The notes under the pieces: generated by a model
What the model was told of the DNA's origin: nothing
The model's database searches: none
The model's input: only the letters and a program-made list of their open reading frames with translations
Position numbers and translations under genes: made by a program
Assembly (NCBI GenBank): GCA_020430505.1
Contig: JAGQJT010000006.1
Location: 1-45,106, forward strand
DNA from: Nanobdellota archaeon
Lineage (GTDB): Archaea; Nanobdellota; Nanobdellia; Pacearchaeales; GW2011-AR1
DNA length: 45,106 bases
Direction of reading: 5' to 3'
Shown: positions 2,468-45,106 of the stretch, piece after piece
How positions within the stretch are numbered: position 1 is the stretch's first letter
Layout of the letters: every line of letters starts with the position of its first letter

Positions 2468-2517
2468 ACCAAAAAATCAGCAACAAACTTTTTAAACATT
2501 TTTTACTAAAAACTAAA

Positions 2518-3012: not shown

Positions 3013-3054
3013 AGTTTTCTAAAAAAGTTATTAATTTAATAGTAATAACAAATA

Positions 3055-3069
3055 GAAAGGTTTAAATAG
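3055..3069 (+). promoter_or_regulatory. BRE/TATA-like promoter motif GAAAGGTTTAAATAG
   Basis: Lies 21-35 nt upstream of the ATG at 3090, spacing typical of leaderless archaeal transcripts. Confidence 0.45.
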
Positions 3070-3089
3070 TCTTATTATTTTCAAATTAC

Positions 3090-3692: not shown

Positions 3693-3834
3693 ATTTTTAT
3701 TTATTTTTTATTACACCAATTTCGGCAAAGCCGACTATCTATTTTATCTTTGATAAAACCACGTACTCTTATTTTTAATCCTCAGTAATTTCGTTTAATT
3801 TCGTATTATGCAATTTTCAAATTCAAAGAAATGA

Positions 3835-12872: not shown

Positions 12873-12918
12873 TAGGTAATTTAGGAAAAAAGGGTTTATA
12901 AAAATTATTGTGGACAGA

Positions 12919-13503: not shown

Positions 13504-13508
13504 AAGAG

Positions 13509-14108: not shown

Positions 14109-14109
14109 T

Positions 14110-14760: not shown

Positions 14761-14814
14761 TCTTTTGTTTATAAATATTTCTTTATTCTAGTGTATGAAA
14801 CTAATTTCAAAAAA

Positions 14815-19800: not shown

Positions 19801-20825
19801 AATTGAGTTCCAATCTCCAAATTCTCACTTAAAACTGTTGATCCCTCCTCTGTCAGATCTGTCGGAGTTACTGCAACAGACCAAACATCACCATTAGAAG
19901 TTTCGTTACTAAAAATTGCTTGAATGCTTTTTCCATTATTGGTGTAATTATAAATTGTTTCAACTTGCCCTTGAGAAAGTTCCCTATCAAAAACAAGAAA
20001 TTCATCTATTTTACCTTCGAATTCTGTACTTCCACTTCCACTAATAACATCTCCAATTACAAACTCACCAGAAGTGTCTGGAAGAGTATAAGTGCAACTT
20101 GATGTAGTATTCACCAAAACTCCGTCTTGATAAATATTACAAACACCAGTAGTAGAATTAAATGTTAAAATAATGTGAGACCAAATAGACCTAAAATCCT
20201 CCAAAGTTAAAACAGATGTTCCATTAACTCTGAAAGTCCACCTATTTGAATTGTAAATGTCAGATACAAACATAATATTCTCAGAAGTATGAGGATTTTC
20301 TACTTCTTTAACAAAAACCGTTTCATAACCTAGATCTGGAGTAGGATACATCCAAAAAGAAACACTAAATCCTTCAGAAAGCGTTAAAGAATCTGAATCT
20401 TCTACAACAATCCTATCATCATTGCCATCAAAAGTATAACAACCTCCAACCTTACACCCAGCAGCATTGGTCCAAGTAGGCACATATCCAGAAGTACCAT
20501 CCCCCAAAGTACCATTATTCCCATATGTAGAATAATCTCTCAACCCTTGAAAAGTTGTGCTACTATAACTCGTATCAAAAGGCATATTTAAAACAGCGAT
20601 ACTTGCCCCATCAACTCTCCAATCAGTAATGTTATAAACAGGATCAGAATCTCCATCAGATGCAGAAAAAATGATGGATAAATTTTCATCAGTGGTATTT
20701 GTTCCAGAAGAAGAATTAATTATCAAATTGCTAACACTTGGAGCCACAGCGAGAACGAAAGAGGAAATTAAAACAATTCCAATTAAAAAAATCAATGCAA
20801 AAACAATTGTACTCTTATTCTTCAT
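16887..20825 (-). CDS. large secreted protein: LamG, parallel beta-helix repeats, LamG
   Basis: Signal MKNKSTIVFALIFLIGIVLISSFVLA. Two copies of the N.TDWR..G.SIAVLNMPFD + LamG module (residues approx 30-320 and 930-1230) flank about 550 aa of N-rich 20-25-aa beta-helix-like repeats (NN.. I.. N.. S patterns, as in NosD/PbH1). Cys-rich C-terminus. Confidence 0.85.
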   Translation of the reverse strand: MKNKSTIVFALIFLIGIVLISSFVLAVAPSVSNLIINSSSGTNTTDENLSIIFSASDGDSDPVYNITDWRVDGASIAVLNMPFDTSYSSTTFQGLRDYSTYGNNGTLGDGTSGYVPTWTNAAGCKVGGCYTFDGNDDRIVVEDSDSLTLSEGFSVSFWMYPTPDLGYETVFVKEVENPHTSENIMFVSDIYNSNRWTFRVNGTSVLTLEDFRSIWSHIILTFNSTTGVCNIYQDGVLVNTTSSCTYTLPDTSGEFVIGDVISGSGSTEFEGKIDEFLVFDRELSQGQVETIYNYTNNGKSIQAIFSNETSNGDVWSVAVTPTDLTEEGSTVLSENLEIGTQFVGDCGTLSSPGTYKLTTNASSTDTCFTISSDNVTLDCQGNYVNYASSSTGYGVVNNGNDNLLIQNCNFNLSSLTVTNSIAVYSYGNVVNTNVKDSNVTIFTEHASTTNNFGIYYYQSLNSLIENVNVSSTSNGYFGYGDYGLYLRDSDNSRVINNEVYTRCYSCYALHLYSSDNITVYNNKFDTDFGRSFGIGNYYSDNCNISNNNVSTTDDDAGGDASFGIFLANSADNNILRNNRVTSLLAPSYVAYSGLGNDVDTSNYAEDYPVLFNDSLSDYVFENLNLSNYGQVLCANCNNVTYRNVTIRNDGLLQGSSTNGFVFDSDIVANTSHGLYFYSSSGYLVNNTNISTLSNDVNPLKLRVGSNNNNFTNNYISEDKNDYAIYLQDSDYLLFENNFIDSGGSNYATLFYGGTDYENFTNNYYNCPNFCLILDSSSYTESYFVNNSFNNGGYPYVVVVYRGNNNYVFVDNDFGGDSFYMNTAASNHTFNITNTSTLGGLYWNQETLNRYYLHDYVDVNATDGVNAVSGANVYAYDNNSVLRDSGTTSASGIERLTVLRDYENYTNSISYNNYTINGTKGMFYDEKSVNVTGYSVVNLTLGNVAPTNPLVEILSSLGTNTSAENLTVIISGSTDVNDDTIYNVTDWRINGTSIAVLNMPFDLNISSVDTNAVRDYSTYGNDGTITFVDNSPVWTNSCKVGGCYSFNRTGYVDLGSDLTFVNFTFSFWVYPHYVGGSKNIVLSKYSGYSNVYLTGDPAYVRTESFTNGQDWGFTSAVVPYDQWTHIAVVRQGDEVSVYLNGSFVENNTIAGADVTQIRYVSQNIASAFNGSIDEVKIFNRTLSPEQVQAIYLNESNGIASSLISSSETIVDENWSVAVTANDLINESETIISENLTILISGTCTYSGSGNWEVDCSDGCNITSEVNVGGNNISITGIGTFTTTANITNYDVLRIEGQDSANICTVRCQGGCFV

Positions 20826-20847
20826 TCTCTATTTTTTCTTTAACCAT

Positions 20848-23800
20848 TTAACAAATTTCTAAAATACTAGTCGCACCATGTATTTTCACGCAAGTTGAAT
20901 TATCATCAATGTAATTATTCGCACTATTTTCAAATACAATTCTCTCCGTTGTAACATTCCCAGTAAAATTTCCTGTTCCAATAACATTCAAAGTATTTTG
21001 TGGAGTAGTAGTTCCAATACCAACATTCCCCCCACTTAAAATTGCAAATTTGGGACTAGAAGTTGCGGAGGTCCCTCCCAAATAAACTGAACCTCCATTA
21101 AGGAACCTTCCATAAACATTGCTTGGGCTTCTAATATAAATATCCCCCCCATCTTCCACCGCACTCAAAATACTATTTCCTCCTGTATCAACAACAAATG
21201 TATCTATCATCGTACCCCCAGAGTTTGGGAATTGAATTGCTCTATTCCTTTCCAAATAAATTTCTCCACCACTAATGTTTGCATTTCCGATTACATTCAA
21301 AGTATTTTGTGGAGTAGTAGTTCCAATTCCAATATTAGTTCCAAGTTGATAAATATTAGAATTATTCAAACTTGTTGTTCCATTCCACATTGGAATATAA
21401 TTTGCAGTTCCTGCTCCAGTCACAGCGCCTAAACCACTAGCGGAAACTGTTGATAAACAATTTCCTCCTTCAATACAAACATCTCCAGTAACATTTATGT
21501 TTCCTCCCACTTCAAGAGCTTCAGAAGGAGAAGTTACATTAATTCCAAAATACCTCTTTCCAGAAAGATACCTAGAAGTAAAAGCTAATCCAGCACTAGT
21601 GTAAAAATCAATTTGATCAGTAGTATGATTATAAATAATTCTTCCAACATCATCATCAAAAATATCTCCAAAATAAATTCCAGAAGAACCTCCACTGAAT
21701 CCAGATTTTTTAAGTTGTATATATGGTTCATCTCTTAGAATAGAAAGAGCATATCCAGGTTTACCATAATCCTCTCCGATTCCAACATTTCCTGTAGAAT
21801 CATCAATGAAGAAATTATTCGCAACACTAAAATTTCCAGTAAAGTTTCCTTCTCCAATAACATTTAAAGTATTCTGGGGTGTAGAAGTTCTAACACCTAA
21901 TCTTTCAAGACTCTCTTCCCATTTTAAATCGAGATCTGAACTCAAGATATCTGAACCAGTCCAATATGCTAACCTTCCTGCAATCCCTCCTCCAGAAACA
22001 TTTCCATTACCAGTGCCAGCATCACTTAAACAATTTCCACCTTCTATACAAATGTCAGTTGTTGCGTTAACAAATCCACCAGAATAAATATCCCCAGTAG
22101 TATTTGAAGAACCGACTACTTTTAAATTTCCTCCAACATCTAACTTGTAAGTGCCAGGTTTTTTTCCTATTCCAACATTCCCCCCAGTATCTAAATAAAT
22201 ATTGGGATTTCCACTATTCCAATCACCTATAGCAAGAGGAATATATGAAGAACCGGTATAGGGAAGAACTCTACCTGTATAAGTCCCTCCATCGTTATAA
22301 ACATATAACTCAACATAACCATTTGCAATACTTGGATGAGCACCAGAACCTGTAGCAAGAACTTGTTGGGACCTTACTGCCCCATTCACTTCTAATTCTT
22401 CATTAGGATTAGCAGTTCCAATTCCGATATTTCCGCTATTCTGATAAATAACCGAATTATTTAAACTAGTTGTGTCATTCCATAAAGGAATTCTTCCAGC
22501 AGTTCCTTCACCAGTTAAAGCGCCAACACTTCCTGCAGAAACTGTTGACAAACAATTTCCTCCATAAGTACAAAAGTCAGAAGCATTAACTTGTCCTGTT
22601 GCAAAATCTCCATAAATTAAATTAGTTGCATTAACATTTGATTGCTGGACTATGAATTTATTACTTGCAGAATTACCAATTCCTGCACCATAACCTATAG
22701 CAACAACATCATTTCCAGAATTTGATTGAAGTGCTGAAAGACCAATTGCAACAGTATTATTTCCTGAACTCAAAGAACCAGAAAAATAACCCAAGGAAGT
22801 AACATTTTCTCCATGAGCAGCATAGTTTGAAGCAGCACCAACAGCAGTTGCATAAGCCCCCCAATTATCATAACCTGCAGTGTACCCAATAAGAGTTGAA
22901 AAATCTCCATAATTATCATTAGCTGCATTGACACCTAAACCAGTAACATAATTTGCAAAATCTGTATTACCAGATAAAGTCCCAACATAAACATCATCTC
23001 CATTGTCTTTAAAGTTTGAAGCGTAAATTGCATAAGATCCCAAATTCAAATTACTTGTAGCACCAATATAAGGAACATAAGAAGCATTGTATGTAGAAGA
23101 CCAAGAAGAATTGTACAAACTAAAATTAGCAGTCCACAAAGGATCAGTTTCTGAACCACTAACAACATCACTTAAACAATTCCCTCCTTCAATACAAACA
23201 TCAGTTGTTGCATTAACAAATCCCCCAGAATAAATATCCCCAGAAATATTTGTAGAACCATTGACAGTTAATCTTTGATTAGCAGAAGAGGTGCCAATTC
23301 CAACATCTCCACTATAGTCAATTAAAAAATCGGTTCTAGCACCAGAGTTTTGACGAACTTCAAAATATCCATTAGGCACAGCATTTGAACCACTAGAATC
23401 AGTAAATAAAATCCCGCTTTCAGAAGCATCACTTACCAAAAAAGCAAGACGATTATAAAGTGATCCTGTTGAAGCGGAAAAAGCCGTATTTCCTGAGCTT
23501 CTTCCAGTTTGAAAATATGTTGTAGTGACTGAATCCGACCAAGTTCCAGTCCACCCATCAAGTCCTCGAAAGATATTTTGATCATTTGCATATAATTTAA
23601 TATCTGTTCTTCCAGTAGAACCAATTATTCCACTTGTAGAATTAAAGTATAAACTATCCCCATTATCTGCTACCTCAAATTGATAATTTGGACTACTAGT
23701 TCCAATACCTACGTTACCTGAGGAATCAATCACTAATCTATCACTTCCCCCAGTTGCTAAACTTATTTTATCAGAATCCATTCTATACATTCCAGTGTTT

Positions 23801-26529
23801 TCATCACCATTAAAGGTATAGGTAACTGCACTTAAACTTGGAGCTTGACTATGATAAATCTTCGCAGCGTTAGAAACACTTCCCCTAAAATTAGATGAAA
23901 ATAAAACTAAATTTCCAATTTGAGAACTTGTCCCACTTGCTTTTATATCCCCTACAACTTCCAACACTTCCGAAGGACTCGTCGTCCCAATACCAACATA
24001 ACCATTTTCATTATCAACAAATAAATCAGTTCCCCCAACACTAAAATTATTGTCTCCCAAAACAACATTCTGGTTTGCTCCAGTGTAAGGAACATAAGAA
24101 TCATTTATTGTTGAATTGACCTCTCCCCAAGAATTTATACAATCTCCATCAATACAAAAACTTCCATTGATATTTGAATTTCCAGAAAGATACAAATCTT
24201 TCCATCTTAAGCTTGAAGAACCTAAATCAAAGGTGGCATCAAAACCTTCTTGAGGAAATAAAGATCCATTTATGTTTAAATTTGAAACTTGCAAAGAACT
24301 AATGTTGTAAACATAAACTGATTGAGCATACAAATCTCCTCCATTTATTGTAACACCTCCTTCACTCCAAGAGCCTCCAAAATTGTAAGTTCCAGTTCCA
24401 TTATCTCCATCATTTCTCAAAAAAGTTGCATCTGCGTAAGCAATAGCTGGAGTTGTTTGGTTATAAGCCCAAGTATCATAAGTTGAATTATATGTTGAAG
24501 ACCAAGAAGAATTATACAAACTAAAATTAGCAGTCCACAAAGGATCGGTTTCAGAACCACTAACAACATTACTCAAACAATTTCCTCCTTCAATACAAAA
24601 ATCAACTTGAGAACTAACATTCCCAAAAAAAGAATAATTATTCACTCCACTAAATGTTGCAGTATCAACGGCATATTTTCCAACTCCAATCTTCAAAGTT
24701 TCTTTTCCAGAAGCAGAAGCATTATACCCACTTATTAATAATTCTTTAGTTACTCCAGAAAAAGGTTCATAATAAAATTCAAATTCTTCAGAAGTTGCAT
24801 TTCCCAAAATCAAGTTAGAACCATTAACTCTCCAGATAAAATCATAACCTGAAGGGGTGGTTCCAAATTCCAATGCTTTTATATCAGTATCCAAATTAAT
24901 TTCTGCAACATTTCCATCTTGAGCATTATTCCAATTAAGAATCATCTCATGAGCCCCAGTATTTTTAAATAAAAGGGTCCCATCATCATCTCCAAAATCA
25001 AGAGTTAAAAGCTGGTCTGGATTCAAAGTTCCAATTCCAACATTTCCATTCATGAAAGAAATGTTTTCCGTATTGACATCAAAATAAGGATAACCATAAA
25101 CCTCCCCCCAATCACCAAATTGTAAAGCAAAATCATTTCCTGCCAAAGTTCCTGCTGCAGTAAATATATTCTCTCCGTCTGAATCTCTAAATGTTGCGAT
25201 ATTAGAACCTGCAACTCCTTCAACACTAAGAGCTCCAGCCTCACCATTTCCTCCAATAGATAACAAAGCAGCGGGAACTGTTGCCCCAATTCCAATATTT
25301 TCTCCACTTTGATAAATAACTGAATTATTCAAACTAGTTGTTCCGTTCCAAACCGGAATATAATTTGCAGTTCCTTCACCCGACAAAGTTCCAAGACCAT
25401 CGGTAACAGAGGATAAACAATTTCCTCCTTCAATACAAACATCAGCTGTTGCATTTACAAATCCACCAGAATAAATATTTCCAGTAAAATTTCCTGTTCC
25501 AAGAACGTTTAAAGTATTTTGAGGGGTTATGGTTCCAATCCCAACTCTACCTGTAGAAGGATCTATGATTAATATTTCATTTCCAGGAGTTTCTCCCCCA
25601 TATCTAAAAGTTCCGTCGCTGAATTTAACTGCAATAGATTCGTCATCCTCAGTAAGCAAACCCAATTCCCCCCCATAAGAATCATCACTTAAAATCAAAT
25701 AACCAACATTATCTTGACCGAATCTAACTTTATCAGAGAAGACATCAAATTCATATTGAGGGTTGTTAGTTCCAATACTTACATAACCAGTATTTGAATT
25801 CACAAAAAAAGTATCCGTATTTACAGTTAAATTTCCACCAACAACCAAATCATTACTTATATCAACATCAGTTACAAAAAGTTTAGAAATTCTATTTCCC
25901 AAACTTCCCAACCATCCAAAAAAACCTGTTCCAGTTGTGGTAATATTTTGAGAACCTAAATCAACATTTGAATCAGCTCCAGAATAAGGCACATAAGAAC
26001 CATTTGCAATACTAGCATTTATCCAGTTAAGATCATTACTAATTTGACTTCCGCTAATCCCAGTTAATTGAGAACCATCTCCAACAAAGTAAGAAGCAGT
26101 TACATTATAACTTCCAAAATCCAAATTAGAATCTACAATCAAACCTGAAGTAGTAGAATTTTTAGTTTGAAAAGAATAAGGACTTCTTGCAATTTTTGAG
26201 TTATTAATTAAAACGCCATCTCTGTAATAACATAAATAATATTGTTCATCAAAATCTAAGTTTACATTTTCCAAATAATAAGAGATAATTCCACGATTAT
26301 CTGTAGTTAAAGTGGTTGAATTAGAGTAAATAACTGGAGAACAATCTGATTCGTTTGAAATATTGAAAACAAAATCAAATGTTCCCGCAGTTATTTCTCC
26401 TGTTGAGGTATCTAAAGTTTGAATATTCAAATGCAACTCATCTAAGACAGTTGCAGAAGAAACAAAACTAAAGAAAAATATAATTGAAATTAAGTAAATT
26501 ACAAAATAAGTAGGAAATTTTTTCACCAT
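20848..26529 (-). CDS. giant secreted fibre-like protein with reiterated GNVGIGT..P...L.V.G and D.CIEGGNCLS modules
   Basis: 1893 aa with signal FVIYLISIIFFFSFVSSA. More than 10 copies of an (N/R)VGIGT(T/S).P motif, of the kind seen in tail-fibre-like proteins. Six copies of [DF]xC(I/T)(E/Y)GGNCLS plus a seventh degenerate one (FCIDGDCINS), four preceded by IYSGGFVNAT. Long internal nucleotide repeats. Confidence 0.85.
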   Translation of the reverse strand: MVKKFPTYFVIYLISIIFFFSFVSSATVLDELHLNIQTLDTSTGEITAGTFDFVFNISNESDCSPVIYSNSTTLTTDNRGIISYYLENVNLDFDEQYYLCYYRDGVLINNSKIARSPYSFQTKNSTTSGLIVDSNLDFGSYNVTASYFVGDGSQLTGISGSQISNDLNWINASIANGSYVPYSGADSNVDLGSQNITTTGTGFFGWLGSLGNRISKLFVTDVDISNDLVVGGNLTVNTDTFFVNSNTGYVSIGTNNPQYEFDVFSDKVRFGQDNVGYLILSDDSYGGELGLLTEDDESIAVKFSDGTFRYGGETPGNEILIIDPSTGRVGIGTITPQNTLNVLGTGNFTGNIYSGGFVNATADVCIEGGNCLSSVTDGLGTLSGEGTANYIPVWNGTTSLNNSVIYQSGENIGIGATVPAALLSIGGNGEAGALSVEGVAGSNIATFRDSDGENIFTAAGTLAGNDFALQFGDWGEVYGYPYFDVNTENISFMNGNVGIGTLNPDQLLTLDFGDDDGTLLFKNTGAHEMILNWNNAQDGNVAEINLDTDIKALEFGTTPSGYDFIWRVNGSNLILGNATSEEFEFYYEPFSGVTKELLISGYNASASGKETLKIGVGKYAVDTATFSGVNNYSFFGNVSSQVDFCIEGGNCLSNVVSGSETDPLWTANFSLYNSSWSSTYNSTYDTWAYNQTTPAIAYADATFLRNDGDNGTGTYNFGGSWSEGGVTINGGDLYAQSVYVYNISSLQVSNLNINGSLFPQEGFDATFDLGSSSLRWKDLYLSGNSNINGSFCIDGDCINSWGEVNSTINDSYVPYTGANQNVVLGDNNFSVGGTDLFVDNENGYVGIGTTSPSEVLEVVGDIKASGTSSQIGNLVLFSSNFRGSVSNAAKIYHSQAPSLSAVTYTFNGDENTGMYRMDSDKISLATGGSDRLVIDSSGNVGIGTSSPNYQFEVADNGDSLYFNSTSGIIGSTGRTDIKLYANDQNIFRGLDGWTGTWSDSVTTTYFQTGRSSGNTAFSASTGSLYNRLAFLVSDASESGILFTDSSGSNAVPNGYFEVRQNSGARTDFLIDYSGDVGIGTSSANQRLTVNGSTNISGDIYSGGFVNATTDVCIEGGNCLSDVVSGSETDPLWTANFSLYNSSWSSTYNASYVPYIGATSNLNLGSYAIYASNFKDNGDDVYVGTLSGNTDFANYVTGLGVNAANDNYGDFSTLIGYTAGYDNWGAYATAVGAASNYAAHGENVTSLGYFSGSLSSGNNTVAIGLSALQSNSGNDVVAIGYGAGIGNSASNKFIVQQSNVNATNLIYGDFATGQVNASDFCTYGGNCLSTVSAGSVGALTGEGTAGRIPLWNDTTSLNNSVIYQNSGNIGIGTANPNEELEVNGAVRSQQVLATGSGAHPSIANGYVELYVYNDGGTYTGRVLPYTGSSYIPLAIGDWNSGNPNIYLDTGGNVGIGKKPGTYKLDVGGNLKVVGSSNTTGDIYSGGFVNATTDICIEGGNCLSDAGTGNGNVSGGGIAGRLAYWTGSDILSSDLDLKWEESLERLGVRTSTPQNTLNVIGEGNFTGNFSVANNFFIDDSTGNVGIGEDYGKPGYALSILRDEPYIQLKKSGFSGGSSGIYFGDIFDDDVGRIIYNHTTDQIDFYTSAGLAFTSRYLSGKRYFGINVTSPSEALEVGGNINVTGDVCIEGGNCLSTVSASGLGAVTGAGTANYIPMWNGTTSLNNSNIYQLGTNIGIGTTTPQNTLNVIGNANISGGEIYLERNRAIQFPNSGGTMIDTFVVDTGGNSILSAVEDGGDIYIRSPSNVYGRFLNGGSVYLGGTSATSSPKFAILSGGNVGIGTTTPQNTLNVIGTGNFTGNVTTERIVFENSANNYIDDNSTCVKIHGATSILEIC

Positions 26530-27947: not shown

Positions 27948-28070
27948 TGAGCCTACTCGGATTTGAACCGAGGACCTCTGGCTTTCTTAGAGTAAATCTG
28001 TGAAAGTTGTAATTCTCATGAATCACATTCCTATAAGACCAGCGCTCTAACCAGGCTGAGCTATAGGCTC
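27948..28070 (-). tRNA. tRNA-Ile (anticodon UAU) with a 48-nt intron at canonical position 37/38
   Basis: Cloverleaf built by hand. Acceptor GAGCCUA/UAGGCUC (7/7 pairs). D stem GCUC/GAGC. Anticodon stem CUGGU/GCCAG (one G-U). T arm CUCGG-UUCAAAU-CCGAG. Discriminator A, no encoded CCA. Loop C-U-UAU-A then the intron GGAAUGUG...CUAAGAA then A38. CUUA (32-35) can pair with UAAG in the intron, leaving two 3-nt bulges at the splice sites (BHB-like). Confidence 0.8.
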
Positions 28071-29180: not shown

Positions 29181-29253
29181 GCCCCGATAGTACAGAGGCC
29201 AAGTATGCTAGCCTTTCACGCTAGTGACCCGGGTTCGAATCCCGGTCGGGGCG
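29181..29253 (+). tRNA. tRNA-Glu (anticodon UUC)
   Basis: Acceptor GCCCCGA/UCGGGGC. D stem GUAC/GUAU. Anticodon stem CUAGC/GCUAG with loop CU-UUC-AC. T arm CCGGG-UUCGAAU-CCCGG. Discriminator G, no CCA. A TATA-like ACTTTTAAAAAC lies about 25 nt upstream. Confidence 0.9.
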
Positions 29254-38032: not shown

Positions 38033-38094
38033 CTCTTACCAGATAAATAAAATAAAAAACAAATATAAGTCTTTTGATTATGAAAACGTTTATC

Positions 38095-38139
38095 AAATCT
38101 TCTTTTTTATATGATTAATGGAAAACCAAGAGAAGATTT
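38095..38139 (+). repeat. ORF-less hairpin at the left edge of the cassette array
   Basis: AAATCTTCT (38095-38103) pairs with AGAAGATTT (38131-38139) around a 27-nt loop. It ends 2 nt before the left border of core 1 (TTGCGTTTAAC, from 38142), roughly where gene-bracketing right arms sit in the other units. Confidence 0.6.
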
Positions 38140-38141
38140 AA

Positions 38142-38260
38142 TTGCGTTTAACATCGGAATTATCTGAAGTTTCACGAAGTGAAATTTGGGAATTTTCGGC
38201 AGGAAATTTCCTTTTATCCCTTGTTATGTGGGGAGACTGCAAGTCGACCTACCGAAGGGA
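38142..38260 (+). repeat. structured intergenic core 1 (attC-like)
   Basis: Left border TTGCGTTTAAC (GTTTAAC at 38146-38152). Hairpin AAGTTTCAC-GAA-GTGAAATTT (38167-38187), then GGG. Hairpin GGAAATTT-TCGGCAGG-AAATTTCC. GTTATGT (38223-38229). GAC-TGCAA-GTC (38235-38245). Right border CCGAAGGGA. Confidence 0.8.
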
Positions 38261-38265
38261 CAGTT

Positions 38266-38529
38266 TTATTTTCGTGAATCATATTTAAACTTAATAAAAA
38301 CTTGAATTCCAGAAATAATTGTTGCAAATCCATTTGTGATTATCAGAGGATAATTCTTAATTAAGATTCCATAAATAGTCCAAAGTAACATACTAGAAAA
38401 GAAAATCAGAAGCATAGAGGTAGAAATGCCTTTAACTGATTTTGTTTTTAGGGACATCTTAATTTGTGGAATCATTGTAATTGCAACAAGTATTCCAGCT
38501 AAATATCCAATTATTTCTACGATTATCAT
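38266..38529 (-). CDS. SemiSWEET / PQ-loop sugar transporter (cassette 1 cargo)
   Basis: 87 aa with three TM helices and the PQ motif ITMIPQIKMSLKTKSVKGIS. Confidence 0.8.
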   Translation of the reverse strand: MIIVEIIGYLAGILVAITMIPQIKMSLKTKSVKGISTSMLLIFFSSMLLWTIYGILIKNYPLIITNGFATIISGIQVFIKFKYDSRK

Positions 38530-38580
38530 AATAAATGAATTAAGTTTAAGTTATATAAAAAGTTTTGTAAGAAAATAAAA

Positions 38581-38754
38581 TTGCACATAACATAGGGATT
38601 AAGGAGAGTTAATTTTACAGAGCGGAACGACGAAGGAGTGACCTCGTAAAATTAATTTGGGAGAGGACTGCAAGTCCGAACTCTTTAACCGTTGTTAAGT
38701 CGTGTGAGCGTTAGCGAAAGTCTGCAAGACGGCACCGAAGCCGAAGGCGAAGGA
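38581..38754 (+). repeat. structured intergenic core 2 (attC-like, enlarged)
   Basis: TTGCACATAAC. A long arm ATAGGGATTAAGGAGAGTT pairs imperfectly with AACTCTTTAACCGTTGTTAAG. Inner stem AATTTTAC...GTAAAATT. ATTTGGG. GGAC-TGCAA-GTCC (38665-38677). GTTAAGT. GTC-TGCAA-GAC (38720-38730). Three consecutive C-GAA-G units (38735-38754). Confidence 0.75.
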
Positions 38755-38938
38755 ATTTTTTCTTCTACGTTAAGAAAATTTAAATCTCTATTTTTAGGGT
38801 GGAAAGTACGCGCTTTTTGCTTACTTTTTTCTAAAAAGTAAGTCGCCACGAAAGGCGAAAATTGGTGACCGAAGAATTTTTAAACTTTAGAAATTTGGTA
38901 ATATCAATAACTGTCCCGTATGGTTCGCCATATTGGGA

Positions 38939-39460
38939 CTACTTTTTATTTAATGCTTTTCTTAGATTTATTGAACCGTCGCAACAATTTCTTAATTGAT
39001 ATGATGAACTTTTTGGAAAGAAAGCATTGATTACTTTTTTGCCATTCTTTCTTGCTAGGTTTATCGCAGGAATAAAATCTGCATCTCCTGAAACGATTAT
39101 TGCAACATCGTATAAATTTTCATAAGAACCTCTAATTAAATCTGTTGCTAAATAAACATCGTCACCTTTTATTGCAAAATCCAAAGAACCGTCTGGCAAA
39201 ATAATTTTTCTTAAATTGCAAAGAACAATATTGAAATTTGGAATTTTCTTTATTTTGTCTAAGAATCTTTTATGTTCTTTGTACTTTGCTTCATCTATTG
39301 ATTTGTCTAGAAGAGCAGTATAATAAAAAATATCTACAATTTCTCTTTTTGTTTCTATTCTTTTTATTATGTCTTCAAATTTTGTTTTTATGTCGTATCT
39401 TTTTAGATTATGATAAAGATTACTTCCATCGATAAAAATAGCAACTCTTTGATTGTTCAT
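38939..39460 (-). CDS. NYN/LabA-like (DUF88) domain protein (cassette 2 cargo)
   Basis: RVAIFIDGSNLYHNL near the N-terminus and IIVSGDADFIPAI later in the sequence. Confidence 0.85.
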   Translation of the reverse strand: MNNQRVAIFIDGSNLYHNLKRYDIKTKFEDIIKRIETKREIVDIFYYTALLDKSIDEAKYKEHKRFLDKIKKIPNFNIVLCNLRKIILPDGSLDFAIKGDDVYLATDLIRGSYENLYDVAIIVSGDADFIPAINLARKNGKKVINAFFPKSSSYQLRNCCDGSINLRKALNKK

Positions 39461-39575
39461 AGAACTATAGAGAAAGAAGAGTTTTAAGTTTTATTGTTCT
39501 TAGAAATTTTCCAAAGCCCTTCAAAATAATTCTTCAAAATTTTAAATTTTGACTAACTTTTAGCTCGCCCGCTTA

Positions 39576-39697
39576 TTGAAACTAACATCGGGATTATCTG
39601 AAGTTTGACGAAGTCAAATTTGGGTGAGGACTGCAAGTCAGAACCAGATAATCGCTGTTATACGTTTTTTCTGCAAGAAAAAAAGCCGAAGGCTCAG
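39576..39697 (+). repeat. structured intergenic core 3 (attC-like)
   Basis: TTGAAACTAAC. Arm AACATCGGGATTATCTG (39584-39600) pairs with CAGATAATCGCTGTT (39645-39659), leaving a TC bulge. Hairpin AAGTTTGAC-GAA-GTCAAATTT (39601-39621). GGG. GAC-TGCAA-GTC (39629-39639). GTTATAC (39657-39663). TTTTTTC-TGCAA-GAAAAAA. GCC-GAA-GGC. Confidence 0.85.
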
Positions 39698-39821
39698 TTA
39701 AATTTTCACGTTAATAAATATCGACTGAAAGGAGTCTATATGTCCGAAGGACGAGGGGGAGTCCAGATTTTTTGTTTCTTTTTTTTAAAAAAATAAAATA
39801 GAGGGGCTTCTATGTTAAAGT

Positions 39822-41072
39822 TTAATCAAAATTTCTTATTAACTTAAATAAATTCCAAAAAGGGTGTGAGAAAAATCTTTTGTAATACTTACTTAACATC
39901 TTAGAATTTTCATGTACCTCTTTTTCAGCAATAATTAATGAATATTTTTTGTTAATATTCGCCCATGCTTCTGTCATTTCAGTTTTATTTTTTGGTCCAG
40001 GAATTTCAATTTTATCGTATTTTCTGAAAATTGCAAAGTTTATTGCTAACCAAAGAGAAATAAATCTGACTCCTAAAAAATTTTCACTTTTTGCATCAAT
40101 TAGTGAGGGGATAAATAGTTTTGGCATGATGAGTTCTAAATCGTTTAGATTACCTAAAACAAATGCCATATTCCATGAAGTATATAAGCTAGCCCATTCT
40201 TGACTTGTTTCTATCGTAGGAAAAAGATTTTTTTTATAATATGATTTGTAAAATGGATTAACATTGTCTGGAACAACAGTCTTTTTTTTGAATATTGTTT
40301 TTGGGCGATTTATCTTTAGATATTCACACAAAGTGTGTGCACATAAGGCATTTGCTCTAAATCCATTATTGTATTCTGTAATTCCTGCTTCATATATGTT
40401 AATTCTTACTAGCTCATTAATGTGTTGATTGTGGTTTTGCCTAATTGGTGATAGAAGCCTATAGTCAATATAGTTTATTTGTTCATCTCTATACAGCTTT
40501 TTTAATTCCTCTTTTTGTAGTTGGGTTTTTGACAATCCTCTTTGAAGTTTAAAATATACTAAAAAAGGATCAAGTGAGAATGGTTTTGCTATATCAAAAA
40601 AATGAGGCGAAATTTTTAATGCGTTTAAAAAAGTTCTAAAAGGGTGTTGAGTATTCAATCCTAATTCTTGTTCTTTTTTCTTATAGTGATTTTGAACTTC
40701 AATAAAAAAATCATGGTCGTTGCACATTGTTGCTGTAAAAGATTCAAGGATATATGCAATGTGTACTGCTTTAATCATATTTTTTGATGGTTTAAACCAA
40801 CTGTTCTCGTTTCCTAACGCTAAGAATTCAACTATTGCAGGATGTTTTTTTAAGATAGCTTTTTTGATAATCTTAAACATTGAATCTAATTTCTTGGATT
40901 TAGTTTTACTTTCTTGTAGAAATTTACTTATGATTTTATTCTTAGTTTTGAAGTCATGCAATCTGATTTCTTTTAGAACTTCTCTTATTGTTTTAGGATT
41001 AGTTGTTAAATCATTTGATAAACCAAACAATAAAAATGATTTTTCAACAACCTCTTTTTTACTTTTTTCCAT
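39822..41072 (-). CDS. hypothetical protein (cassette 3 cargo)
   Basis: 416-aa ORF with no recognisable catalytic motif; no tyrosine-recombinase R..HxxR..Y pattern was seen. Confidence 0.65.
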   Translation of the reverse strand: MEKSKKEVVEKSFLLFGLSNDLTTNPKTIREVLKEIRLHDFKTKNKIISKFLQESKTKSKKLDSMFKIIKKAILKKHPAIVEFLALGNENSWFKPSKNMIKAVHIAYILESFTATMCNDHDFFIEVQNHYKKKEQELGLNTQHPFRTFLNALKISPHFFDIAKPFSLDPFLVYFKLQRGLSKTQLQKEELKKLYRDEQINYIDYRLLSPIRQNHNQHINELVRINIYEAGITEYNNGFRANALCAHTLCEYLKINRPKTIFKKKTVVPDNVNPFYKSYYKKNLFPTIETSQEWASLYTSWNMAFVLGNLNDLELIMPKLFIPSLIDAKSENFLGVRFISLWLAINFAIFRKYDKIEIPGPKNKTEMTEAWANINKKYSLIIAEKEVHENSKMLSKYYKRFFSHPFWNLFKLIRNFD

Positions 41073-41253
41073 TATATTATGTTAATAATTTGAAGAATTT
41101 ATAACTTTTGCTTTTTTAAAAGAAAATGATGAAAGCCCCTCTTAATAAATTTCTTTTACGAAGTAAAAGTCAATATGTGCGTAGCACCTGGACTCCCCCT
41201 CTTTTGCTTCTTTTTCTAAAAGAAGAATGAGATTTAGATTAGTGAAAATTTAA

Positions 41254-41396
41254 TTGCGTATAACATCGGAATTTAACGAAGTCGCCAAAGGCGATTTGGG
41301 AGAATGAGGAGTGAGCTTGGCGAACGACGAATGAACCGTTAAATTCCTGTTAAACTCTTTTTGCATACGAAGTATGTAAAAACTTCGTCCGAAGAG
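41254..41396 (+). repeat. structured intergenic core 4 (attC-like)
   Basis: TTGCGTATAAC (GTATAAC at 41258-41264). Arm AACATCGGAATTTAACG (41262-41278) pairs perfectly with CGTTAAATTCCTGTT (41337-41351) except for a TC bulge (41266-41267). Hairpin TCGCC-AAA-GGCGA. ATTTGGG. GTTAAAC (41349-41355). CATAC-GAA-GTATG. Right border TCCGAAGAG. Confidence 0.85.
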
Positions 41397-41472
41397 TTTT
41401 TGAATTGCTAACAATTATTTTTGTAAGATTACACTTATACTATAAGGCTACAGAAAATAGTTACTAGAAGTT

Positions 41473-41488
41473 GGAAAGTTTTAAATAT
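41473..41488 (+). promoter_or_regulatory. BRE/TATA-like promoter motif GGAAAGTTTTAAATAT
   Basis: Lies 22-37 nt upstream of the ATG at 41510, inside the cassette-specific inverted repeats. Confidence 0.45.
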
Positions 41489-41509
41489 GTATTTAAATAA
41501 GAGTTAAAC

Positions 41510-42682
41510 ATGGACTTAATAATCATCCTAATTGCAATATCTTTCTTAGTTATCATATTTGCAAAACCATTTTTTAACAAACTAAATATTCCTCTGAGTT
41601 TTAGTGCTATGTTTATTGGCATGGTCTTAGGGACTTTGCCATTATTTCAAGAGACTGCTAATACAGATACTTTCTCTTGGTTTGCAAATCTGGGTATGCT
41701 TTTTATGATCTTTTCGATAATCTTTCAGATGAAAGGGTCAAAACATAAACAGGATAAAGCACTTGGAAAATATTTGATAAAAGCAGGCATAAAAGTTATT
41801 ACATTGGAACTATTAATAATATTTCCATTAGTATACTTCTTTTTAGAAAAAAATATTCTTAGTGCATTGTTAATCAGTTTAATATTTACAACTGTTGCTG
41901 AAGTAATGGTAATACCTTTTCTAAAAAAATTCAAGATAATAAATACAAAACTGGGAAAATCAATTGTAGGGATAGGTATCTTAGACAATGCTTTTGAATA
42001 TATAGTCATCCTGATTGCCAGTTTCTCAAGTGTTGGTGGAGATGCAAATATTAAGACATTAACAATCGCGGCAGTTGCTACAATAACTGCATTTATTTTG
42101 GTAAGATCTTTCTCTAAAACAAAATATCTTGAACATATTGTAAAAAATTTAGATTCAAATGGTTTATTTTTATTATCTATTGGAGCATTATTTTTATTTA
42201 GTGGTATCTTGTCATTAATTGGACTAGAATTTTTGGGAGCAGTTATTGCTGCGATTCTTATAAAAAACATTGTTAAAGAGTTACCTAAAAATCATAATGA
42301 TGAGTTAAATAAGATAATTAATGCAAGTTCAGAAGGATTATTCGGACCAATATTTTTCTTGTGGGTAGGGGTCACAACAAACTTGATGTACATTGTTCAA
42401 AAACCAGGTCTAGCAATAATATTTGTGCTAGTAGGTTTATTCGCAAAAATAATCCCAACAGTTATTGCAACAGCAAAAGATATGAATATTCACTCGTCAA
42501 TTATATTAGGTATAGCATTAAAATTCGGTTCAGGAATAATTTTTATCAAATTACTCTTTGAAAAAGGTATGATTACAGAATTAACATATACACTAACAGT
42601 TGCTGCAATACTATTATATAGAATACTTATTCCACTTTTACTAGGACATTTTATTACCAAATGGAAGAAAGACTTAGTTTAG
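41510..42682 (+). CDS. cation:proton antiporter (CPA/Kef-type Na+/H+ exchanger family) (cassette 4 cargo)
   Basis: 390 aa with about 11-12 TM helices. The N-terminal layout (IILIAISFLVIIFAKPFFNKLNIPLSFSAMFIGMVLG) is typical of Na_H_exchanger family proteins. Confidence 0.75.
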   Translation: MDLIIILIAISFLVIIFAKPFFNKLNIPLSFSAMFIGMVLGTLPLFQETANTDTFSWFANLGMLFMIFSIIFQMKGSKHKQDKALGKYLIKAGIKVITLELLIIFPLVYFFLEKNILSALLISLIFTTVAEVMVIPFLKKFKIINTKLGKSIVGIGILDNAFEYIVILIASFSSVGGDANIKTLTIAAVATITAFILVRSFSKTKYLEHIVKNLDSNGLFLLSIGALFLFSGILSLIGLEFLGAVIAAILIKNIVKELPKNHNDELNKIINASSEGLFGPIFFLWVGVTTNLMYIVQKPGLAIIFVLVGLFAKIIPTVIATAKDMNIHSSIILGIALKFGSGIIFIKLLFEKGMITELTYTLTVAAILLYRILIPLLLGHFITKWKKDLV

Positions 42683-42722
42683 AATACTTATTTTCTGTAG
42701 CCGTTTGTTAGCAATTCAAAAA

Positions 42723-42807
42723 TTGAGTTTAACCCTTGTTATACGCCCCGACGACTGAAAGGAGGAGAGCGCAGCGTGGTCGAGCGGAGTGAAACGGAGC
42801 GAAGAAG
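42723..42807 (+). repeat. structured intergenic core 5 (minimal variant)
   Basis: In TTGAGTTTAAC-CCTT-GTTATAC the two boxes (42727-42733 and 42738-42744) are only 4 nt apart and the inner hairpins are absent. This is followed by a GC-rich module containing GAGAGCGCAGCGTGGTCGAG (42765-42784) and the right border GCGAAGAAG. Confidence 0.8.
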
Positions 42808-42824
42808 TTGATTTAGAGGCACGA

Positions 42825-43148
42825 TTACTTGCCATATTTATCAATAAGAAAACCCAACGCTGAACCAAGAATTAAAGTCATTATGGTTATCGGTATTAGT
42901 GAAAATGGTTCTTGCCAACCAATAATTATTGCAGAAGGTAATAACACAAGAAATGGAATAATTATGCCCTTGGCTACGCCTTTTATTTTTAGATCACTTG
43001 TTGCGATTAGAAAGCCAGAGATTATCCAAAGGGAAAAAGCTGACAGATTTGCATCCCATGTCAATTTTTGAAGAACCATTGGGATAACATCAATTACTCC
43101 AGCTATGATTCCAAGTAAAATACCAAGTTGGGTTTTCTTCATGCTCAT
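42825..43148 (-). CDS. small 3-4 TM membrane protein (cassette 5 cargo)
   Basis: 107-aa hydrophobic ORF. Confidence 0.6.
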   Translation of the reverse strand: MSMKKTQLGILLGIIAGVIDVIPMVLQKLTWDANLSAFSLWIISGFLIATSDLKIKGVAKGIIIPFLVLLPSAIIIGWQEPFSLIPITIMTLILGSALGFLIDKYGK

Positions 43149-43206
43149 AATTATAACCTTAATTTATTAGAATTTAAATAACTTTCTCTAAGTGCCTCTA
43201 AATCAA

Positions 43207-43280
43207 TTGCGTATAATTCCTGTTAATTGTCCCGAGCCGATAGGCGAGAGCGCAGCGTGGTCGAGGCGAAGCCGAAGAAG
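43207..43280 (+). repeat. structured intergenic core 6 (minimal variant)
   Basis: TTGCGTATAA-TTCCT-GTTAATT looks like core 4 with its interior deleted. Then GCC-GATA-GGC, the same 20-nt block GAGAGCGCAGCGTGGTCGAG (43246-43265), and GCGAAGCCGAAGAAG. Confidence 0.8.
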
Positions 43281-43328
43281 TTTGAGATTTGGGCGTAATC
43301 AGTATAAACTCTAGAGTGGTAATTGAGC

Positions 43329-43342
43329 GAAAGATTTAAAAA
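43329..43342 (+). promoter_or_regulatory. BRE/TATA-like promoter motif GAAAGATTTAAAAA
   Basis: Lies 25-38 nt upstream of the ATG at 43367, inside the cassette-specific inverted repeats. Confidence 0.4.
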
Positions 43343-43366
43343 GTTCTTATCAATTCTTATATTAAT

Positions 43367-43741
43367 ATGACAGATTCAAATGCACTTTTGGTAAAACCAA
43401 AGATAAGTAAATGGGGAGAAATCAGAGCATACTTAGCTCACGATTTTGATGCTCTTGATTTAGACCATCAAATTTATGTTCCTGAAAGATTTGTTTTAGG
43501 ACACTTTAGGGAGAGGAAAGATGGTTTCAAATTAAGTCAAGGCGGAATTTTTTATAGAGATTCTTCGGAAGCATTAACACAATATCAAAAACATCTTGAC
43601 GATGGAAAAATGGAAGTTGTGCAAGAATTATTGTTACCTGAATCTGTTTTAGAGACAATTGCACAACAGGGTAAAGTGTATATTGATGCAAGAAAACAAA
43701 TCTCTGAATCTGTCCAATCAGTTGATCAATATTTAGTTTAA
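43367..43741 (+). CDS. hypothetical protein (cassette 6 cargo)
   Basis: 124-aa soluble ORF with no motif recognised. Confidence 0.55.
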   Translation: MTDSNALLVKPKISKWGEIRAYLAHDFDALDLDHQIYVPERFVLGHFRERKDGFKLSQGGIFYRDSSEALTQYQKHLDDGKMEVVQELLLPESVLETIAQQGKVYIDARKQISESVQSVDQYLV

Positions 43742-43777
43742 ATCTTTCGCTTTCTATCTTTTAGCCCAAATCTCAAA

Positions 43778-43935
43778 TTGAGTTTAACATCGCGATTAAG
43801 AGAAGTTTGGCGTAGCCAAATTTGGGGAAATTTTCTGCAAGAAAATTTACCTCTTAATCGCTGTTATATTCTTCCGATAGGAACGAGGGATAGTCTGCAA
43901 GACGGTTTTTTGCGAAGCAAAAAAATCCCGAAGAG
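43778..43935 (+). repeat. structured intergenic core 7 (attC-like)
   Basis: TTGAGTTTAAC (GTTTAAC at 43782-43788). Arm AACATCGCGATTAAGAG (43786-43802) pairs perfectly with CTCTTAATCGCTGTT (43851-43865) except for a TC bulge (43790-43791). Hairpin AAGTTTGGC-GTA-GCCAAATTT (43803-43823). GGGG. ATTTTC-TGCAA-GAAAAT. GTTATAT (43863-43869). TTCC-GATA-GGAA. GTC-TGCAA-GAC. TTTTTTGC-GAA-GCAAAAAA. CCGAAGAG. Confidence 0.85.
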
Positions 43936-44101
43936 TTGTGTTTAAGTTCCAATAAATACTGCGTAGCAGACTATATGTCCAAAGGACTGGGGAGAGTTCC
44001 GTTCTTTCAAAAAAGCGTAGCGTTACATATAGAACAAGTATTAAGGGGCACACTCAGATTTAGCAAATATTAATAAATGAATAGTCATATTTAATTTATA
44101 A

Positions 44102-45106
44102 ATGGAAGCTAATAATAATTCAGATAGATTTGAATTAATCTACTCATTTTTTATGTTGATATTTGGATTTGGAATTATTGCTTGCTTTCTGGTTGCGATT
44201 GGTTTCATCATTTACATATACAATTTTATGTTTCTCATTTATTGTTGGCCTATCTTGGTTGGCATCTGGTTAGGAATTTTTAGGAAATCAGATAAAGGAT
44301 ATGAAATGGAGTTAAAACAAGAAGATGCCAAAAAATTAAATGGAATTATAGAAAAAATCATCAAAAAAACTGGACAAAAAAAGCCCTATAAAATAATTCT
44401 TTCAGAAGGTAGTGGAATTGCCGTAAGTGGATTGTTCAGGAAAAAACTAATCATTGGATTGGCTACACTTCAATTGTTAAACGAAAAAGATTTACTTGCA
44501 ATCATCGCACATGAATACGGACATTTTGCTAAGAAAGATACTATTTTAGGATATTTCACATATAGAATACAGAATTTTATTGAATTGCAAAAGGAAATAA
44601 ACAAGCAAAATATAGGAGTTAGTTTTACAATTGTGATTTATTTACCAACCTGGCTTTTTTTCTATTTACTTTCAAAATATTATACTCTTATTAGTTTGTG
44701 GTATAGCAGAAGAGTTGAATATAGAGCAGATAGATTCGCCGCAGATTTAGTCGGAGAAAAAGAGTTTGCTGATGCTCTTGTTAAATATTGTGTAATAAGT
44801 GAGATTTTTGAAAATGTGATTCCCCAACATATTATTCATTTTCTCCAACAAGATAAGCAGTTAGTCAAAATGAATAAAATGTGATTCCCCAACATATTAT
44901 TCATTTTCTCCAACAAGATAAGCAGTTAGTCAATATTTACGATTATATGAATCCAATATATACAGAAGACAATATCAAAAAGTCTTTCAAAGGAGTTTTA
45001 TCCGATAAAAGCAGTTGGTGGTCAACGCATCCAAGCATAAGTGAAAGACTGGAAGCACTAAATACTAAATCTGTTGAGGTAAATATCAATACCAATCTAA
45101 AGGATT
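44102..45106 (+). pseudogene. M48-family (HtpX/Ste24-like) zinc metallopeptidase interrupted by a 65-bp duplication (cassette 7 cargo; 3' end outside the window)
   Basis: N-terminal TM helices and HEYGH (IAHEYGHFAKKD). The frame ends at 44884 (..LVKMNKM*). From 44881 a second frame repeats VIPQHIIHFLQQDKQLV and continues open to the window end, including WWSTHPSISERL, the conserved C-terminal M48 motif. Confidence 0.65.
44811..44933 (+). repeat. tandem duplication: two perfect 58-bp copies with a 7-bp spacer (period 65)
   Basis: 44811-44868 equals 44876-44933 (AAAATGTGATTCCCCAACATATTATTCATTTTCTCCAACAAGATAAGCAGTTAGTCAA). The spacer is AATGAAT. Confidence 0.95.

Follow-up and report, generated by a model that had tools for sequence, protein, structure and literature searches.

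Complementary arms enclosing gene cassettes in a putative integron-type array of a Nanobdellota archaeon

Near the right end of a contig from a Nanobdellota archaeon (GenBank assembly GCA_020430505.1, contig JAGQJT010000006.1), a gene of 416 codons lies between nested inverted repeats. What kind of unit do these repeats belong to, and what might pairing between them do? The entire 45,106-bp contig, ~30% G+C, was analyzed and is referred to as the window. Its right end is interpreted here as an integron-type array in which complementary arms would pair within the single-stranded bottom strand and serve recombination, a reading to which a probability of about 0.6 is given from sequence comparison. 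The observations behind it are the complementarity itself, its conservation and covariation, the cassette boundaries, the strand bias of hairpin loops, and the synteny of a recombinase in related loci.

The array (38152-45106) contains a series of imperfect palindromes that bear ..YTAAC and GTTRRRY boxes and point the same way when read on the minus strand. Single genes lie between successive attC sites and encode SWEET/PQ-loop, NYN, 416-amino-acid (416-aa), Na+/H+ exchanger, and M48 peptidase proteins, together with two small open reading frames (ORFs). The seven attC sites are co-oriented, with R' variants GTTAAAC, GTTAAGT, and GTTATAC elsewhere in the window. The unit carrying the 416-aa gene, cassette 3, spans 39586-41263 (1678 bp, equal to the repeat spacing of 1678 nucleotides [nt]), with the minus strand of the window as its top strand. 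Gene-oriented flank alignment of the window with related loci (L002 to L008 and L010) placed the start of homology at G/TTATACGC and its end after ..GATG/TTAT, where the slash marks the breakpoint. In seven other distinct contexts, shared homology began at G/TTATACGCAATTAAATTTTCAC, and the outside sequence was different in every context. Because the breakpoints at G/TT include the downstream attC, the mobile unit is a cassette in the classical sense; as delimited by homology, it is an integron-type cassette of cargo plus downstream attC with crossover at G/TT. An initial assumption that the attC sites read on the plus strand was dropped, as the same breakpoints show the minus strand to be the top strand. 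On that strand the attC of cassette 3 reads CGTATAAC...GATGTTAGTT, an imperfect inverted repeat with R'' (RYYYAAC) and R' (GTTRRRY) boxes. Its fold is an imperfect hairpin in which unpaired bases separate the R and L stems. The parts of cassette 3 are as follows.

39586-41263, minus strand: cassette 3, in the order 5'-TTATACGCAA, 5' arm, 416-aa gene, 3' arm, spacer, attC ...G-3'
41254-41263, minus strand: first 10 nt of the cassette, TTATACGCAA, the R' portion carried by the cassette; crossover 41263/41264
39822-41072, minus strand: cargo gene, encoding a 416-aa conserved protein
39586-39664, minus strand: attC core, with the R' side at 39586, imperfect L stems, and a branched tip with GAA and GCA triloops
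39657-39663: GTTATAC, complement of the R'' box
39658-39664 and 41257-41263: TTATACG and CGTATAA, fourth and outermost pair, the attC R''/R' boxes
39665-39697, plus strand: 33-nt spacer from R'' to tier 1, with two mini-hairpins; this spacer type recurs in many other cassettes
39665-39683 and 39684-39694, plus strand: spacer mini-hairpins TTTTTTCT-GCA-AGAAAAAA and AGCC-GAA-GGCT
39698-39709 and 41242-41253, plus strand: tier 1, TTAAATTTTCAC (3'-arm copy) and GTGAAAATTTAA (5'-arm copy), perfect over 12 nt
39755-39766 and 41188-41199: tier 2 as first read, GGGGGAGTCCAG and CTGGACTCCCCC
39753-39766 and 41188-41201, plus strand: tier 2 in full, GAGGGGGAGTCCAG (3' arm) and CTGGACTCCCCCTC (5' arm), perfect over 14 nt
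39800-39809 and 41133-41142, plus strand: tier 3, AGAGGGGCTT (3' arm) and AAGCCCCTCT (5' arm)
39723-39736 and 39742-39752, plus strand: 3'-arm local hairpins GAC-TGAAAGGA-GTC and GTCC-GAA-GGAC
41153-41169 and 41177-41187, plus strand: 5'-arm local hairpins CTTTTAC-GAA-GTAAAAG and GTGC-GTA-GCAC
41207-41225, plus strand: 5'-arm local hairpin CTTCTTTT-TCT-AAAAGAAG

The first-pass annotation, made from the sequence alone, had described three nested inverted-repeat pairs around the 416-codon gene; all three were recovered at its coordinates, as were all the local arm hairpins it had named. Its lengths for tiers 1 and 3 stand, while the middle pair is 14 nt rather than 12 nt and the outer R-box pair had been overlooked. 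Each GC-rich tier block occurs just twice in the 45-kb window, at the arm positions. The annotation's view that such an arrangement was unlikely to arise by chance agrees with the shuffled controls: the information content of the chain was reached in none of 20,000 dinucleotide shuffles of both flanks, and a colinear complementary chain of equal length was obtained in 8 of 20,000. The check on folding energy that it proposed gave -49.6 kcal/mol for the joined arms as DNA, compared with -21.2 ± 3.3 kcal/mol for shuffles (z = -8.55).

The 5' arm begins 10 nt past the crossover, and the 3' arm stops 33 nt short of the R'' box of its own attC. Since the 5' arm begins past the crossover and the 3' arm precedes R'', the arms of a circularized cassette flank the attC and lengthen its stem. 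When the circle junction (41125-41263 joined to 39586-39815) was folded as single-stranded DNA (ssDNA), it formed one nested rod of tier 3, tier 2, tier 1, R boxes, attC, and hairpin branches (-77.8 kcal/mol; z = -11.2). A contiguous in-array stretch of equal length gave -43.1 kcal/mol (z = -2.4). The proposal that the stem encloses the gene is supported for the linear array, but a simple clamp understates the predicted structure, which in a circular or single-stranded cassette would lengthen the attC hairpin. In-array pairing of a 3' arm with the 5' arm of the next cassette was considered and rejected for tiers 2 and 3, the sequences of which are cassette specific; likewise, in the other window cassettes, pairing between neighbors was rejected for every tier.

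Complementary ends of this kind were found well beyond cassette 3. The 23-mer GTTATAYGYAATTAAATTTTCAC occurred exactly in 56 GTDB species representatives and >120 metagenome contigs. Carriers were labeled mostly as Woese-, Pace-, Nano-, and Aenigmatarchaeota and ‘Methanosarcinales’, with some Patescibacteria and a few Gammaproteobacteria (labels of metagenome-assembled genomes, unverified). The 3' partner was found in 63 instances, which reduced to 55 nonredundant cassettes of 0.7 to 6.5 kb from other contigs. The predicted cassette-closing layout is one that recurs in hundreds of cassettes of DPANN archaea and candidate phyla radiation (CPR) bacteria. Across the 55 cassettes, tier 1 and arm-specific spacers were common, while the inner tiers differed and were matched in each cassette's own 3' arm; they included GAGGGGGAGTCCAG, GAGTTGGGGGGCA, GAGGGGGTTCC, GAGGGGGATTTTC with AGGGCACACTC and GAATCGAGGGC, GAGGGAGAGTCC, GGGAACCCCC, and AAAGAGTTAGGGGCATTA, among others. 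At least 10 distinct tier-2 sequences were seen, every one with its complement in its own 3' arm. Tier 1 was identical in >150 cassettes, and the spacers between R'' and the 3'-arm copy of tier 1 (tier 1') fell into at least three conserved types.

The inner tiers changed together on both sides. With tier 1 excluded, complementarity averaged 41 between arms of the same cassette and 24.5 across cassettes (0 of 10,000 permutations), and junction folds were stabler with the cassette's own 5' arm than with a foreign one in 36 of 41 cases (mean difference in folding free energy, -7.8 kcal/mol; P = 3e-9). Tier-2 cells, with the register fixed by homology to the window arms, were paired in 83% of cases versus 73% with shuffled partners (0 of 2,000), and double-sided changes were present at several tier-2 columns. 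Tier 3 of the 416-gene cassette was altered on both arms between loci; the 416-family junctions alone, with six unique sequences, are too alike for a formal covariation count. A restriction-modification (R-M) cassette beside the 416 cassette in L004 had the same tier 1 with tier 2 GGGAGAGTCC/GGACTCTCCC and tier 3 AAGAAGGGGTTTTA/TAAAACCCCTTCTT. Homologous cassettes thus keep their arm complementarity while covarying, a feature that the first-pass annotation had made a test of its reading and that extends to unrelated cassettes; its suggestion that arm types form families is likewise supported by arm sequence families common to unrelated cassettes. The cargo of the R-M cassette (L004:4724-6776; L004 and L005) is a defense-type pair of a cytosine methylase and an NgoFVII-type restriction enzyme.

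The same annotation had noted that the left-arm module recurs upstream of the M48 gene, which sequence comparison confirmed (39730-39772 versus 43965-44007; 77% identity), and had proposed looking downstream of that gene for a partner arm, the lack of complements there being a result that would count against its reading. The contig ends before that partner could be read, and the homologous cassettes L188 and L187 were used instead. The window portion is as follows.

43788-44053, minus strand: attC and 3' arm of the incomplete M48 cassette; the partner arm lies past the window end
43936-43950, 43989-44000, and 44044-44053: M48 tiers TTGTGTTTAAGTTCC, GGGGAGAGTTCC, and AGGGGCACAC

In L188, where the M48 protein is 79% identical, the three window blocks have perfect nested complements downstream of a four-gene block, the outermost ending 10 nt from ..TATAA/C, so that the annotation's reading withstands its own test. 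In L187 (88% identical protein), the tiers are different and again complementary across both arms. Within the M48 gene of the window, a 65-bp direct tandem duplication (44811-44940; 98% identical) shifts the frame, and the ORF after the duplication runs on in another frame to the window end. Either a genuine disruption of the gene or an artifact of assembly could explain it.

Hairpin loops in the arms and attC sites were strongly biased by strand. Among hairpins whose stems had 4 bp or more, triloops on the cassette top strand were TNC rather than GNA by 236 to 11, placing GNA loops on the bottom strand (window plus), compared with 55:36 in the coding interior. Closing pairs were C:G (167) or T:A (69), and none were G:C or A:T. 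In the intergenic array spacers of the window (38033-44101, plus strand), 17 GNA and 0 TNC loops were counted, versus 18:19 in the rest of the window, and the noncoding DNA of the cassettes in the window is built largely of d(C-GNA-G)-type hairpins. The d(C-GNA-G) motif is an exceptionally stable DNA mini-hairpin whose stability hinges on that closing pair (PMC13037366, PMC3201870). The bottom strand folded better than the top strand in 39 of 41 cassettes. Gene orientation was balanced: of 55 cassettes, 28 had the longest ORF in sense and 27 in antisense (in the window, 4 and 3, respectively); arm type, tier-1 offset, and loop strand were fixed relative to the attC and not to gene orientation.

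The enzyme that would act on these sites was sought in the related loci. A tyrosine recombinase of ~250 aa was present in 36 of 187 loci, and in all 36 it was located upstream and oriented divergently relative to the cassettes, in many cases within 100 to 350 nt.

L004:1955-2707, minus strand: tyrosine recombinase
L006:1896-2709, minus strand: tyrosine recombinase, with 34 further loci

The recombinase scored 183 bits against XerA_Arch NF040815 (cutoff, 220), ~160 bits against XerC and XerD (cutoff, ~330), and 170 bits against the integron integrase model TIGR02249 (cutoff, 265); its best PDB match was Pyrococcus abyssi XerA (4a8e). By these scores it is related to the Xer family without being a member at the curated cutoffs. 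Alignment with VchIntIA (2a3v) was obtained in two pieces, with 21 residues standing where IntI has 68, and the IntI-specific domain is accordingly missing. According to Ghaly et al. 2022 (PMC9668308), archaeal IntIs carry the additional domain, and the majority of arrays in archaea are clusters of attC sites lacking an integrase (CALINs); because those IntIs carry that domain, the short recombinase is something other than archaeal IntI. Most of the 17 recombinase-proximal junctions that were inspected have a semi-conserved, attI-like sequence, ..TTCGTTTAATAGnTG/TTATACG, with a 7-6-7 inverted core; in at least two, an attC comes before the junction instead. Its synteny makes the Xer-like enzyme the candidate recombinase of these cassettes.

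The 416-aa protein itself offered little sign of a role in mobility. Profile searches of Pfam, NCBIfam, PADLOC, and PDB sequences returned no match. The AlphaFold model is confident and all-alpha (pLDDT, 88; pTM, 0.90), and a Foldseek search of the PDB gave no match at E ≤ 0.001, with every TM-score 0.16 or less; no transposase or recombinase features were found in the family, PDB-sequence, or fold searches. The family forms 87 clusters with 37 to 85% identity from CPR bacteria, DPANN archaea, and some Gammaproteobacteria. Within the assembly collection, an identical protein (P0004) is indexed in 65 blocks; it was seen in four unrelated contexts, with hsdM, mutS, and a tyrosine recombinase as neighbors in unrelated contigs. 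A TATA-like TTATAAAT near 41100 precedes the ATG by ~30 nt and is thus enclosed by the innermost tier, which suggests that the cassette carries its own promoter-like box and that such cassettes may be self-promoted.

Taken at the level of mechanism, the following model can be proposed. Integron attC sites are recombined in single-stranded form. If the bottom strand (window plus) became single stranded, the arms would pair. Before excision, the gene would thereby become a closed loop, and the attC of the upstream neighbor (10 nt from tier 1) would come to lie beside the cassette's own attC (33 to 66 nt from tier 1'). After excision, the arms, R boxes, and attC would form a long branched rod in which the attC is held folded for reinsertion at an attI-like site beside the short Xer-like recombinase. 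Speculatively, arm pairing could also compensate for the missing synapse-stabilizing IntI domain. In canonical integrons, a single strand exchange has been shown to excise cassettes from linear ssDNA in one step (PMC12614218), which provides a physical setting for the model. Pairing of the strand in vivo, the identity of that strand, and any promotion of excision or insertion are inferred from the sequence patterns described above.

Could the arms act in RNA instead? In such a case, they would pair in the transcript, join the 5' and 3' untranslated regions, and stabilize, insulate, or direct processing of the mRNA. Complementarity is strand symmetric, so that RNA of either strand would fold, and attC sites in mRNA are said to influence translation in classical integrons. 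However, genes are oriented 28:27 while the arm features follow the attC, and the TATA-like box lies inside tier 3, so that a transcript of the 416-aa gene would miss the 5' arm. GNA loops with C:G closure are DNA specific, whereas sense transcripts would read UNC, and no Rfam family matched. A function in RNA is therefore regarded as improbable; the GNA strand bias, the better folding of the bottom strand, the balanced gene orientation, and the internal TATA-like box indicate that the fold is probably one of ssDNA of a recombination unit rather than of mRNA. A purely historical origin, with the arms as halves of an ancestral palindromic "empty cassette" or as products of template-switch (quasi-palindrome) correction without present function, is also considered unlikely. 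Arm sequence families are common to unrelated cassettes, as this origin would allow, and intramolecular template switching could regenerate perfect blocks. But only short blocks are complementary, separated by unrelated spacers that are each conserved within their own arm family; the tier-1 sequences of the window are wholly unrelated at the same 10-nt offset; and double-sided changes are frequent. Because of these short blocks, unrelated tier-1 sequences, and double-sided changes, the arm pattern favors selection on pairing over descent from one palindrome.

Functions in double-stranded DNA, with the arms as inverted sites for an end-bridging protein or as substrates for inversion of the gene segment, would be compatible with the invariance of tier 1 (TTAAATTTTCAC) in >150 cassettes and with the 50:50 gene orientation, as an invertible segment might give. 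Yet tiers 2 to 5, and the other tier-1 sequences of the window, vary between cassettes while remaining complementary, the 416-aa and M48 genes hold one orientation to their arms in all loci seen, and strand-biased GNA loops would be meaningless in duplex DNA, which makes this explanation quite unlikely. The arrangement of inverted repeats around a single gene found in many contexts also resembles the terminal inverted repeats (TIRs) of a transposon or miniature inverted-repeat transposable element, with the 416-aa protein as transposase. Here the boundary analysis was decisive and effectively refuted the transposon-TIR reading: the unit ends at G/TT and includes the attC, while the repeats are internal, interrupted by unrelated spacers, and nonhomologous between blocks. 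Moreover, there are no target-site duplications at the cassette ends, unrelated cargo (an R-M pair, an M48 operon, and transporters) is carried with the same arms, and the protein has no transposase-like domain or fold. This explanation is considered extremely improbable.

Several observations weigh against arm pairing in a single-stranded bottom strand as the basis of recombination. Between the R and L stems, the extra unpaired bases fall on the 5' half of the window plus strand (39586-39664, as in the attC sites of L004), and canonical attC bottom strands have their extrahelical bases on the 3' half, the opposite side. As the unpaired bases sit on this noncanonical half, the strand assignment draws solely on the GNA bias and the folding energies. 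The stem from R box to tip is otherwise almost perfect, with no evident L-box bulge. Archaeal Okazaki fragments are short, and 1.7 kb of ssDNA would thus need another source, such as DNA uptake or an intermediate of rolling-circle or excised form. No recombinase was found within the window itself, and the NYN cassette had no convincing arms in the window scan. Uncompensated single mismatches occur in some tier-2 pairs (e.g., L006 and L010), and the invariant tier 1 could also be a protein-binding element.

Compared with known systems, the array is most like integrons (attC sites as 59-base elements or Vibrio cholerae repeats), including those of archaea (Ghaly et al. 2022; PMC9668308), in its tandem co-oriented palindromes, R''/R' boxes, G/TT crossover, and cargo with downstream attC. 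In related loci it also shares a divergent tyrosine recombinase and a putative attI-like site at the array head, and its cassettes cross between bacteria and archaea. Unlike in integrons, complementarity runs 60 to 190 nt beyond the R boxes and spans the gene in the linear array, the noncoding DNA is made of GNA mini-hairpins, and the unpaired R-L bases are on the other hairpin half. Integron cassettes are mostly promoterless and co-oriented with Pc, whereas those described here are sense and antisense equally and apparently self-promoted, and the recombinase is without the IntI-specific domain. In these last two respects, the missing IntI-specific domain and the want of promoterless cassettes in a common orientation, the array departs from what defines an integron. 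Xer/dif systems (integrative mobile elements exploiting Xer of the CTX-phi type; XerCD) share an Xer-family enzyme, a folded-ssDNA site, and a single strand exchange, and the recombinase-side junction has a dif-like 7-6-7 core; they differ in having a single phage attP instead of multicassette arrays with attC-like hairpins, and the recombinase described here falls below the curated XerA, XerC, and XerD cutoffs. The GAA, GCA, and GTA loops with 5'-C...G-3' or T...A closure on one strand match d(GCGAAGC)/d(C-GNA-G) mini-hairpins, which are mainly known as isolated elements (e.g., in phage ssDNA origins) and not, as here, arrayed by the dozen in cassette noncoding DNA. The subterminal hairpins of IS200/IS605 elements, as well as repetitive extragenic palindromes and bacterial interspersed mosaic elements, are similar as strand-specific DNA hairpins that act as recognition structures in a single-stranded mobile-DNA pathway, but those systems use HUH (Y1) transposases and have no G/TT, attC, or comparable long-range end pairing. 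In the searchable literature, which leaves most subscription journals outside, and in targeted term searches of Ghaly et al. 2022 (PMC9668308) and PMC12614218, neither cassette-spanning arms, a GNA-loop bias in attC regions, nor an Xer-like integrase for such arrays was found described.

The first-pass annotation had treated the stem as a feature of cassette 3. An enclosing multitier stem is indeed present there, but it is array-wide rather than confined to that cassette: five of the six complete cassettes in the window have their own perfect stem of 10 to 18 nt ending 10 nt from the crossover, and the sequences of these stems are unrelated. The remaining cassettes with arms are listed below; the SWEET/PQ-loop tier was read by eye, as its left copy touches the ORF call and it is absent from the scripted list.

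38152-38590, minus strand: SWEET/PQ-loop cassette, with 10-nt tier TTTTATTTTC (38265-38274) and GAAAATAAAA (38571-38580) at the 10-nt offset
41264-42732, minus strand: Na+/H+ exchanger cassette, gene antisense, with an 18-nt tier at 41397-41414 and 42705-42722
41446-41459 and 42689-42702: second tier of the Na+/H+ exchanger cassette, 14 nt
42733-43216, minus strand: cassette of the 107-aa gene, with a 15-nt tier at 42808-42822 and 43192-43206; its attC is the R-box hairpin alone
43217-43787, minus strand: cassette of the 124-aa gene, antisense, with a 14-nt tier at 43281-43294 and 43764-43777
43326-43335 and 43742-43751: second tier of the 124-aa gene cassette, 10 nt

Two attC sites (42725-42746 and 43209-43229) are cut down to the R-box hairpin (e.g., GAGTTTAAC-CCTT-GTTATACGC); L stems and tip are gone, yet the cassettes retain perfect tier-1 stems. 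The NYN-domain cassette (38939-39460, minus strand) likewise carries defense-type cargo, with a match to PADLOC HEC-09 (E = 6e-21). Assembler word depth over the 3'-arm segment of cassette 3 (39576-39969) was 170 to 4455, compared with ~3 for the flanks, in two activated-sludge metagenomes, which marks the arm module as highly repeated in both communities. One low-depth "skip" joint in the assembler contigs connects 39755 with 41202; it probably reflects a path that the assembler took across the inverted repeat. Of the words sampled from the region, 89% occurred in one run, an activated-sludge metagenome.

An Rfam 15 scan of the whole window at the gathering score returned only two tRNAs and no covariance-model match for the arms, and ribozyme, intron, and other known-RNA readings were dropped after this result. 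The tRNA genes lie as follows.

27948-28070, minus strand: tRNA gene
29181-29253, plus strand: tRNA gene

The anticodon loop of one of them is interrupted by a 49-nt intron, evidence in favor of an archaeal host. Outside the array, the window also contains an Elp3-like radical-SAM/GNAT gene and very large genes on the minus strand (6561-26529). The encoded proteins measure 2138, 698, 1312, and 1893 aa, and three small ORFs are interspersed among the genes. Laminin_G_3, beta-helix, metallophosphatase, and Sde182-like domains were identified in these proteins, which are probably surface proteins of an episymbiont. Base composition, the tRNA intron, the Elp3-like gene, and the giant Laminin_G_3 proteins together indicate that the host is probably an archaeon of DPANN type.

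Integron-type recombination with arm pairing in the bottom strand, if it operates as proposed, bears on how attC sites fold in vivo, on the form of excised cassettes, on the choice of attC pairs for excision, and on cassette origin. Complementary ends, compensatory changes, and strand-specific hairpins are consistent with a single-stranded intermediate of the whole cassette. More tentatively, and at a likelihood well short of even, these arrays might represent a distinct integron lineage of DPANN archaea and CPR bacteria, with an Xer-like enzyme devoid of the IntI domain, self-promoted cassettes, and attC synapsis guided by DNA arms that would prealign the sites for one-step excision, the excised ssDNA circle being held as a nuclease-resistant rod of GNA hairpins; on this view, the arms might in addition preserve a trace of the way in which cassettes come into being. 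Models specific to IntI would score such arrays as CALINs, and the synteny described here suggests that an unrecognized Xer-like integrase may adjoin many of the DPANN and CPR arrays that have been classed in this way as integrase-less. A stem 10 nt after G/TT, together with the GNA triloop bias, would provide a simple signature for detecting and delimiting cassettes that move between archaea and bacteria.

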